IMG/VR virus record: IMGVR_UViG_3300045988_084761
From: a virus
Strand: one strand, 5' to 3'
DNA length: 64,000 nt
A program made the translations under genes and the position numbers. Each line of letters opens with the position of its first letter. Position 1 is the stretch's first letter. Under the pieces are notes generated by a model. That model was not told where the DNA came from, did no database searches, and worked only from the letters and a program-made list of their open reading frames with translations. Positions 49,779 through 51,188 of the stretch are shown here, piece by piece.

Positions 49779-51188
49779 GTGGCTGATAATGCACAAACAA
49801 TTTGGAATTATTTTAAATCAAAAGGATTTAGTGATTGCGGAATCGCGGGTCTAATGGGCAATCTTTACGCAGAAAGCGGTCTTAGTCCAACTAATTTATA
49901 GAACTCATATGAAAAAAAGTTAAAGATGACTGATTCTGAATATACCTCCGCTGTTGATGATGGAAGATACAAAAACTTTGTAAAAGACGGGGCTGGTTAT
50001 GGTCTAGCTCAATGGACATTCTGGAGTAGAAAACAAAATCTGCTTTAGTTCTGTCAAAATCGTGGAAGATCCATTGGAGATTTAAACACTCAATTAGATT
50101 TTTTATATTAGGAGCTAATTACAAGTTTTTCTTCTTTAGTTAATATTTTAATTTCTGCCGTTTCTGTTGAAGCAGCATCTACAGCAGTACTGCTCTAGTT
50201 TGAAAAACCTGCGGATTAGAGCGTTTATGTTCAACAAAAGAGAACAAGTTATGGTCAATAGTATTATAATAAATTTGCTAACATTTCAAATATAGTTGAA
50301 GGAGGTAATAAAATGAAATATAGTGATAGCAATAAACCACTTCAATGCATGATGACTAATAGCACTTGCTATAAATAGACACGCACTATGCAAGTTAAAG
50401 GAATTTTATGGCATAGTACAGGCGCGAATAATCCTAATTTAAAAAGATATGTTCAACCTAGCGATAATGATCCCAACTATAATACTTTAATAAGTAAAAT
50501 AGGAAAGAATACAAGTAAAAATGACTGGAATCATGTATCTATTCAAGCTGGGCTAAATTGCTGGATTGGCAAGCTAGCAGATGGAACAGTAACAACAATA
50601 TAGACAATGCCATGGAATTATCGTCCTTGGGGATGTGGTTCTGGAACTAAAGGCTCTTGCAATAATGGATGGATTCAATTTGAAATTTGCGAAGATGGAT
50701 TAAATGATGCAGCCTATTTTAATAAGATTTATGAAGAGGCTTGTTAGATTACTGCTTACCTATGCAAGATGTATAATATAAATCCATTAGGAACAACTAC
50801 CTTGAACGGTATTACCGTCCCAACTATTTTATGTCATGCTGATAGCCATAAGTTAGGATTAGGCTCTAATCATGCAGATGTAAACCACTGGTTTCCAAAA
50901 TTTGGAAAAAGCATGGAAACAGCAAGAACAGATGTTTACAATTTAATGTCAAATGTTTAGGAGGATGATGAAGATATGACTGATGAAAAATTCGCTGAAT
51001 TTATGAATACTTGGCTAACCAATAAAGCTAATGAAAAAGAGACATGGGGTTCCGATAATCTCGAATGGGCTAAGACAAATGGAATTATGGCCGGCGACAG
51101 CGCTGGAAGAATGATGCCAAACAAATTCTGTACTAGATTAGAAACAGTAACTATGATTAGAAGATTGGCGGAAAAGCTAGGACTTTAA
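49779..51188 (+). CDS. endolysin (peptidoglycan hydrolase; GLMGNLYAESG glycosidase-like N-domain plus amidase-like domain) with ~10 in-frame TAGs. Possibly fused via TAG 50958 to a C-terminal SLH (S-layer homology) cell-wall-binding domain
   Basis: GTG start after aaaaggaggg. Frame is open from 49779 to 51188 except for TAG codons. The C-terminal 70 aa match SLH (TWGSDNLEWAKTNGIMAGDSAGRMMPNKFCTRLETVTMIRRL). Alternatively a separate SLH ORF 50976..51188 with its own AGGAGG RBS. Confidence 0.55.

Follow-up and report, generated by a model that had tools for sequence, protein, structure and literature searches.

A virus-derived stretch of 64,000 nt (IMG/VR virus record IMGVR_UViG_3300045988_084761; hereafter the window) carries an endolysin gene whose frame crosses an amber codon, TAG, at position 50958 and continues into a C-terminal S-layer homology (SLH) module, and this raises the question of what sets the proportion of enzyme and wall anchor. 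The first-pass annotation proposed that suppression of TAG 50958 fixes the ratio of lysin to lysin-SLH fusion. We found no support for this claim: the TAG is absent from relatives beyond ~89% identity, and nine other TAGs lie upstream in the same gene. Instead, the ribosome-binding site and ATG conserved at the SLH junction suggest, as far as sequence can tell, that internal initiation takes place there and that read-through is not what is controlled.

Modules and genetic code of the lysin gene

The lysin gene runs on the + strand from a GTG at 49779 to 51188 (TAA at 51186-51188) as one frame, 469 codons long and uninterrupted by TAA or TGA. We counted exactly 10 in-frame TAGs, in line with the roughly ten first reported, at 49899, 50046, 50109, 50196, 50217, 50259, 50376, 50601, 50745 and 50958; with TAG taken as stop, the longest fragments of the frame reach only 40-71 amino acids (aa). 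The Gln codons of the gene are 13 CAA, 10 TAG and 0 CAG, and CAG is missing as though each one had turned into TAG.

The meaning of TAG was examined in an alignment of 20 distinct full-length relatives. Columns with TAG in recoded members hold Gln in 38 of 99 standard-code cells, compared with a Gln background of 4.8%, and several TAG columns are invariant Gln. Dulem virus 33, which has no TAG, carries CAG exactly at the position of TAG 50958 (TIQEDDDM vs NV*EDDEDM, the asterisk marking TAG). Since the TAG columns align with Gln in standard-code homologues and a tRNA(CUA) gene is present in the window, TAG is, judged by these alignments, a Gln codon in the lysin gene. The charging identity of the suppressor tRNA did not emerge from its alignment with the phage genes for tRNA-Gln, Trp, Lys, Glu, Leu and Ser, so the assignment to Gln comes from the protein alignments. 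Stop-to-stop coverage by open reading frames (ORFs) under different codes is uninformative in such AT-rich DNA, where TAA as sense scores highest, and all 29 tabulated long ORFs end in TAA or TGA, though they were defined that way. In one IMG/VR relative (L026), a TAG stands at alignment column 148, where every other sequence has Trp; a TGG may have become TAG there by mutation or sequencing error, or decoding may not be strictly Gln.

A Pfam scan found two catalytic domains and one SLH motif in the lysin (Phage_lysozyme2, Amidase_2 and SLH). The Amidase_2 match holds TAGs 50601 and 50745; TAG 50376 precedes it by a short distance and follows ATG 50313. The frame does run through TAG 50958 into a 70-aa SLH part, as first annotated, and forms a single fusion ORF that ends in the SLH module. 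The SLH part is thus real, and the description of a lysin plus SLH is refined to two catalytic domains and a single SLH motif, not the usual triplet.

Within the module, the SLH match covers aa 423-455 (51045-51143). The Pfam SLH family (PF00395) scores 23.7 bits for the 70-aa module alone and 19.5 bits in the whole protein, with a cut-off of 20.8, and 9 of 19 homologous modules exceed that cut-off (best E 4.3e-8). A profile built from the 19 homologous modules matches the SLH domain of B. anthracis Sap (6bt4, 3pyw) with E ~6e-8 and gives weak matches to SlpA (7zgx) and 8bz2. The TRAE-type motif, which together with conserved W and G positions serves SLH domains in binding secondary cell-wall polymer, reads TRLE in the window and TRGE, TREE or TREQ in relatives; module residues W31, G40, T53, R54 and R63 are invariant or nearly so, and the W...G...TRxE pattern is kept. 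No lysin has three tandem SLH motifs in one chain: 69 of 69 lysin ORFs have one module each. Hence, with a single SLH motif per chain, a trimer would need three chains.

An AlphaFold model was made with a 26-sequence alignment on P0001, a database protein 98% identical to the window lysin. It has a mean predicted local distance difference test score (pLDDT) of 76.9 and three folded parts. Its only two long low-pLDDT stretches, residues 169-176 and 392-398, lie between the folded parts. Each is just upstream of an internal Met codon, and the second one extends as far as that Met.

We fetched 173 relative loci; IMG/VR and a genome collection added 160. The SLH module is present in 71 ORFs from these loci, and the amidase-SLH fusion is unbroken in all of them; as a free-standing gene the module occurs in 0 of the 71, none of which is shorter than 200 aa. 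Uninterrupted ORFs are also found under the standard code, with the lysozyme-like domain plus amidase in Acutalibacter phage Fontainebleau and record MT835491, and with amidase plus SLH module in Dulem virus 33 and in NatCom/Heliusvirales phages.

Putative internal start sites at the module boundaries

GGAGG is found at just three places on the + strand from 49700 to 51600 (49767, 50301 and 50960), each of them directly ahead of a module start. The lysin genes of three relatives (L171, L172 and L173) again have GGAGG at module starts only. In the whole 64 kb, the lysin is the sole protein gene that has an in-frame internal GGAGG and start with at least 50 codons on both sides, and it has two such sites. 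This pattern at the module starts of the lysin is not chance. Both internal sites are in frame and lie in the low-pLDDT linkers between domains, none inside a domain. The strong ribosome-binding site and ATG at 50976 already noted for the 70-aa SLH part (site 2) were confirmed, with AGGAGG at 50959-50964 and an 11-nt spacer, and the AG of TAG 50958 belongs to the Shine-Dalgarno (SD) motif of this site.

Conservation of site 2 was assessed in 43 distinct amidase-SLH tails, taken from phage and prophage sequences and from metagenome-assembled genomes and 38-98% identical to the window. Met or Val stands at the module start in 39 of the 43, and the null model for these drew synonymous codons at random according to the usage of the gene concerned, with the acidic peptide left unchanged. 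We found GGAGG 5-11 nt before the module start in 37 of the 39 tails, mostly at exactly 8 nt, compared with 16.7 expected under the null. In AT-rich lineages, the per-sequence null probability is 0.10-0.18, yet the motif is there in all of them.

Codon choice around the motif is equally constant. The residue before the first Glu varies (Q, amber, E, M, G, K, L, P), yet its codon is always NNG, with CAG, TAG, GAG, ATG, GGG, AAG, TTG and CCG all seen before GAG. Glu within the motif is always GAG, while the rest of the window lysin has 3 GAG vs 17 GAA and that of L022 has 1 vs 22. Of the tails, 32 start the module with ATG and 6-7 with GTG, and Val at this place is always GTG, even in L020, whose Val codons are GTG in 4% of cases. 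Since the residue varies while NNG, GAG and GTG stay constant, selection appears to act on the SD motif and the start codon, and the constraint is not purely at the level of the protein.

Site 1, before the amidase domain, shows much the same behavior and is, with its 7-nt spacer, the stronger of the two internal motifs. Lysins that begin with the amidase domain use MKY as their true start with a normal ribosome-binding site; hence, site 1 is clearly a former gene start. Most fused lineages keep the ATG together with a GGAGG- or GGAG-type motif 4-13 nt upstream, and the three fused homologues without the ATG (L065, L070 and L071) are also without the motif. This retention suggests continued use as a start, on weaker evidence than for site 2.

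On balance, we consider it fairly likely that the locus is the lysis cassette of a large (~148-kb) TAG-to-Gln gut phage in which a constitutive fusion and internally initiated isoforms assemble into mixed trimers. One gene would encode a three-module endolysin, with all ten UAGs read as Gln by the phage tRNA(CUA). Since the UAGs in the catalytic modules would be decoded by the phage tRNA, no catalytic chain would be expected before the code switch is in place. The amidase-SLH fusion would be made constitutively, initiation at ATG 50976, behind AGGAGG and the acidic linker, would most likely give a free 70-aa SLH module, and initiation at ATG 50313 would probably give a 291-aa amidase-SLH isoform. 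The predicted peptides are ...SNVQEDDEDMTDEK for the fusion junction and MTDEKFAEFMNTWLTNK (MTDEKF...) for the product of the ATG 50976 start. The isoform ratio would be governed by relative initiation strength, not by UAG read-through.

Free SLH modules and full-length chains would then join in mixed trimers, through which the enzyme would be anchored to the host's secondary cell-wall polymer, by analogy with LysBT1, an endolysin of a Brevibacillus thermoruber prophage whose SLH domain mediates trimerization and cell-surface binding (PMC12285257). The single-SLH SlpA also relies on three chains for its trimer (PMC12285257). Since SLH motifs act as three-pronged trimers when they bind cell-wall polymer and LysBT1 trimerizes via SLH, mixed trimers would be the most economical reading.

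Several observations weigh against internal initiation and mixed trimers. GC-rich relatives reach GGAGG with a null probability of 0.5-0.8, so the statistical weight comes from the AT-rich lineages only, and the junction lineages counted are not phylogenetically independent. The acidic linker and the hydrophobic Met or Val could be conserved for protein-level reasons. The spacer is 11 nt in the window vs 8 nt in most relatives, and three relatives (L003, L069 and L150) are without site 2. LysBT1 forms homotrimers without any reported internal start (PMC12285257). Finally, we infer the 70-aa and 291-aa isoforms, and any hetero-oligomer, from sequence.

These points leave some room, though we judge it unlikely, for the internal SD-like motifs and Met codons to be unused, either as leftovers of gene fusion or as by-products of an acidic linker and a hydrophobic first helix residue. 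Site 1 is clearly an ex-gene start, since MKY has its own ribosome-binding site in lysins without the lysozyme domain, Glu and Asp codons easily yield GAGGA, and the null in GC-rich relatives is 0.5-0.8. However, GGAGG persists in AT-rich genomes where GAA dominates, the preceding codon spans eight "amino acids" yet ends in G, Val is always GTG, and the 8-nt spacing is fixed in most lineages across 38-98% protein identity. At site 1, the homologues that lost the ATG (L065, L070 and L071) lost the SD motif too. A functionless relic would decay at synonymous sites.

Quite doubtful, in our estimate, is a variant in which the TAG-free SLH frame is translated under the standard code before the suppressor tRNA acts and catalytic chains are made only after. 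The SLH frame is the one part of the lysin gene without TAG, and its conserved SD motif and ATG follow a TAG directly. Free SLH modules might then first fill wall sites or form inactive trimers, with catalytic subunits joining later. If true, this would be genetic-code-gated assembly of a heteromeric endolysin and a second layer of lysis timing.

The amber codon at the junction

A leaky stop at UAG 50958, with suppression efficiency fixing the ratio of lysin without SLH to lysin-SLH, has an attractive position in its favor: the TAG falls right on the domain boundary, with the internal ATG 18 nt further on. Suppression is also never 100%, so some truncated product must exist, and the junction TAG is retained in four close sequences, the window, L006, L011 and L171 (~89-95% identity). 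It is found only in these four. Among recoded relatives, the junction codon is GAG in L007 and L091 (~79% identity; 8 and 7 TAGs in the open frame), TTG in L172 (~79% identity, 6 TAGs), GAG in the L008-L019 clade (~65% identity, 4-5 TAGs) and CCG in L173, which is also TAG-recoded. Standard-code relatives have CAG, GAG, ATG, GGG, AAG or CCG at this position. Hence, there is no conserved stop codon at the amidase/SLH junction among the relatives. Nor was TAG seen to serve as a terminator among the 29 tabulated long ORFs, which were defined by TAA or TGA ends, and nine more TAGs are in frame in the same gene.

These nine TAGs precede TAG 50958 in the catalytic part, several of them at invariant Gln columns. 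Since they lie upstream in catalytic domains, an active enzyme already needs efficient UAG decoding, and the tenth TAG cannot serve as a special valve: inefficient suppression at the nine would leave almost no enzyme, and efficient suppression would make the tenth give mostly fusion. In the SD motif, NAG-GAG-G, the first base of the codon alone is free of SD constraint, so a change from C to T would be neutral where TAG is Gln. By these comparisons, TAG 50958 is an ordinary Gln codon that also serves as the NAG codon of the SD motif; a small share of chains may end at residue 393. The leaky stop is very improbable as the control element. Read-through in Q-beta A1 and in retroviral gag-pol likewise involves a stop at a domain boundary with an in-frame extension, but here a conserved leaky stop is absent in relatives and the same codon is sense nine more times in the lysin.

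We hold it very improbable that the SD-like motifs are programmed elongation pauses, in which anti-SD pairing would allow each upstream domain to fold. Both motifs do sit in inter-domain linkers, but a pause requires neither a start codon at a fixed 8-11 nt nor ATG or GTG exclusively. SD-mediated pausing is itself disputed.

Three separate in-frame genes with TAG as stop (ends at 50259 and 50958, then the SLH gene) can be dismissed almost outright, for although each module has its own SD motif and start and TAGs 50259 and 50958 are near module ends, seven more TAGs fall within the lysozyme-like and amidase modules, homologues have Gln in the TAG columns, and standard-code relatives carry uninterrupted fusions.

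Setting, host and known systems

The coordinates of the lysin, its modules and start sites, and the surrounding features are collected in Table 1.

Table 1. Features of the lysin locus and its decoding tRNA in the window (positions counted from the first letter of the 64,000-nt stretch).
Feature	Position	Strand	Details
Amber suppressor tRNA, anticodon CTA	27795..27869	+	Needed for decoding the lysin TAGs; charged amino acid inferred
Terminator-like hairpin	49724..49751	+	11 pairs and T run; after PhoH-like gene; upstream edge of lysis cassette
Start of full-length lysin	49767..49781	+	GGAGG 49767-49771, 7-nt spacer, GTG 49779; relatives begin at the same place (MADNAQ.../MTNAQ...)
Lysin ORF	49779..51188	+	469 codons and TAA; 10 in-frame TAGs taken as Gln
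Phage_lysozyme2 (PF18013)	49785..50276	+	aa 3-166; Pfam E 2.6e-34; PHROG 20388 endolysin 1.8e-64; 6 TAGs
Internal site 1	50301..50315	+	GGAGG 50301-50305, 7-nt spacer, ATG 50313; low-confidence linker before amidase; predicted 291-aa amidase-SLH isoform
Amidase_2 (PF01510, N-acetylmuramoyl-L-alanine amidase)	50385..50840	+	aa 203-354; Pfam E 6.7e-12; PHROG 15001 endolysin 3.5e-34
Internal site 2	50958..50978	+	TAG 50958, AGGAGG 50959-50964, 11-nt spacer, ATG 50976; acidic low-confidence linker QEDDEDM
SLH module	50976..51188	+	70 codons, TAG-free; N-terminal helix and one SLH motif, TRLE; TAA common to full-length ORF
Small membrane protein gene	51190..51531	+	113 aa, 1 TAG; putative holin by position and topology only
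Terminator-like hairpin	51533..51571	+	16 pairs; downstream edge of two-gene cassette

The lysis cassette is TAG-dense and lies between terminator-like hairpins, inside a block of TAG-free replication genes. Most + strand genes from 28.9 to 57.8 kb are TAG-free (helicase-like, PhoH-like, RNase H and gyrase genes), and the neighbors of the lysin have 0 TAGs where the lysin has 10. The suggestion that dense TAGs in the lysis genes match a role of recoding in lysis timing stands as to this pattern; the timing role itself is unproven by the window. The small gene downstream begins 2 nt past the lysin stop, is kept downstream of the lysin in relatives and is directly followed by a terminator-like hairpin. 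Its product has a strong hydrophobic segment at ~aa 10-44 and then a weaker second one, and it matched no Pfam or PHROG family, hence no described holin family.

TAGs also occur outside the cassette. The gene at 58396-59307 has the most TAGs of any window gene (11) and an odd architecture, in which a membrane anchor at the N-terminus is followed by a long coiled coil and, at the C-terminus, a GIY-YIG nuclease domain (Pfam 1.4e-8); its neighbors are TAG-free. The ThyX thymidylate synthase gene at 59588-60214 (Pfam 1.3e-48) has 3 TAGs; hence, recoding is not limited to late or lysis genes. Four consecutive genes at 22140-26352 have 1-3 TAGs each, two of them match Mtd_N, the N-terminal domain of the major tropism determinant (one with E 4e-14, the other with 22.2 bits vs a cut-off of 26.3), and the four probably encode tail-fibre or receptor-binding proteins. 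The tRNA array of the window (9993-28761) contains 31 tRNA genes and a tmRNA (16273-16588, tag DNDYFENYLAA). Rfam adds two tRNA-like matches missed by ARAGORN, at 19935-20053 (119 nt, possibly with an intron) and 20251-20335, and a full-length ROOL RNA (RF03087, 353 bits) lies at 19073-19668 within the array, between the two tRNA-Gln genes.

A megablast search with 11 kb around the lysin against 50,697 phage records gave no match. At the protein level, many database entries of 443-476 aa have the same three modules at 64-98% identity, with TAG called as Gln; these come from contigs of ~105-149 kb, one ORF each. The window and its relatives share the gene order PhoH-like, lysin, small protein without Pfam match, RNase H, gyrase B and gyrase A. 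In the closest relatives, a further gene (L006:3144-3998 and L171:1-499) separates the PhoH-like gene from the lysin; it encodes a 284-aa protein with NAGPA and SPOR domains and is absent from the window. The recoded relative L069, with two TAGs in its SLH module, has neither the acidic patch nor the internal ATG; where recoded relatives do have the internal start, the module is free of TAG, its Gln codons being too few for significance.

Amidase-SLH relatives are found overwhelmingly in genomes of Oscillospiraceae/Oscillospirales, including Flintibacter, Colidextribacter, Pseudoflavonifractor, Acutalibacter and many metagenome-assembled genomes, and one contig of 148,971 bp, whose lysin is 78% identical, was binned with an Oscillospiraceae genome. 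The homologue genomes support the Clostridia-type Gram-positive side of the earlier host proposal (Clostridia or Bacilli) and narrow it, so that the host is probably an Oscillospiraceae-like Clostridia bacterium. Beside two single-SLH prophage lysins, ORFs with triple SLH motifs lie on the opposite strand (L125:2634-3671 (-), from Colidextribacter sp. OB.20, and L154:2-1213 (-), from an Oscillospiraceae metagenome-assembled genome), indicating that those hosts use SLH anchoring.

Endolysins of Gram-positive phages frequently have in-frame internal starts; several cases have been verified experimentally, and the short chains are often found assembled with the full-length one (PMC9430671). As in these enzymes, the window lysin has an SD motif and start in the linker before the wall-binding module, in frame and with a common stop. 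In phi2638A and Ms6, the second start lies between two catalytic domains, as does site 1 here, and the two-polypeptide endolysins Lys170, CD27L, CTP1L and LysP7951 follow the same logic as the proposed free SLH modules. The position of the sites is conserved among relatives, the feature that Pinto et al. use as a criterion. In contrast to the described enzymes, the wall-binding module here is a single SLH motif for which a trimer is expected, both kinds of site occur in one gene, the SD motif overlaps a recoded TAG, and the system is known from sequence alone. The text of the survey has 0 occurrences of "SLH" (PMC9430671).

LysBT1 shares with the window lysin an Amidase_2-type N-acetylmuramoyl-L-alanine amidase and one C-terminal SLH with a TRAE-type motif; it differs in having no N-terminal lysozyme-like domain, the standard code and no reported internal start. 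According to its authors, no SLH endolysin had been described earlier (PMC12285257).

TAG-to-Gln recoding (code 15) is known from phAss-1 (PMC10607447) and from the proteomics of crAss-like phages (PMC9523058). Lysis cassettes are preferentially recoded, and recoding has been proposed to time lysis (Borges et al., bioRxiv 10.1101/2021.08.26.457843). Code-15 gut phages likewise have a tRNA(CUA), TAGs concentrated in particular genes including the lysis cassette, TAG-free replication genes and a predicted Clostridia host that uses the standard code. Here, unlike in those phages, the TAG-dense lysis cassette is embedded between terminators among TAG-free replication genes.

The separate ingredients are known: code-15 phages with recoded lysis genes, internal-start endolysins and an amidase-SLH endolysin. 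The abundance of amidase-SLH enzymes in Oscillospiraceae phages, the conserved start before the SLH module and the two nested sites in one gene appear to be undescribed. Amidase-SLH endolysins are widespread in Oscillospiraceae phages and prophages, though the type was reported as new only in 2025. The result also corrects a read-through model that is attractive but lacks support; the junction TAG, an ordinary Gln codon, happens to sit in a ribosome-binding site. The TAG-dense, terminator-insulated cassette amid TAG-free early genes offers a clean case for testing recoding-timed lysis. If confirmed, internal initiation before the SLH module would carry the principle of two-polypeptide endolysins over to a wall anchor for which trimerization is required. 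It would also explain the stoichiometry in a simple way and give a rule for the design of engineered lysins active on gut Clostridia.

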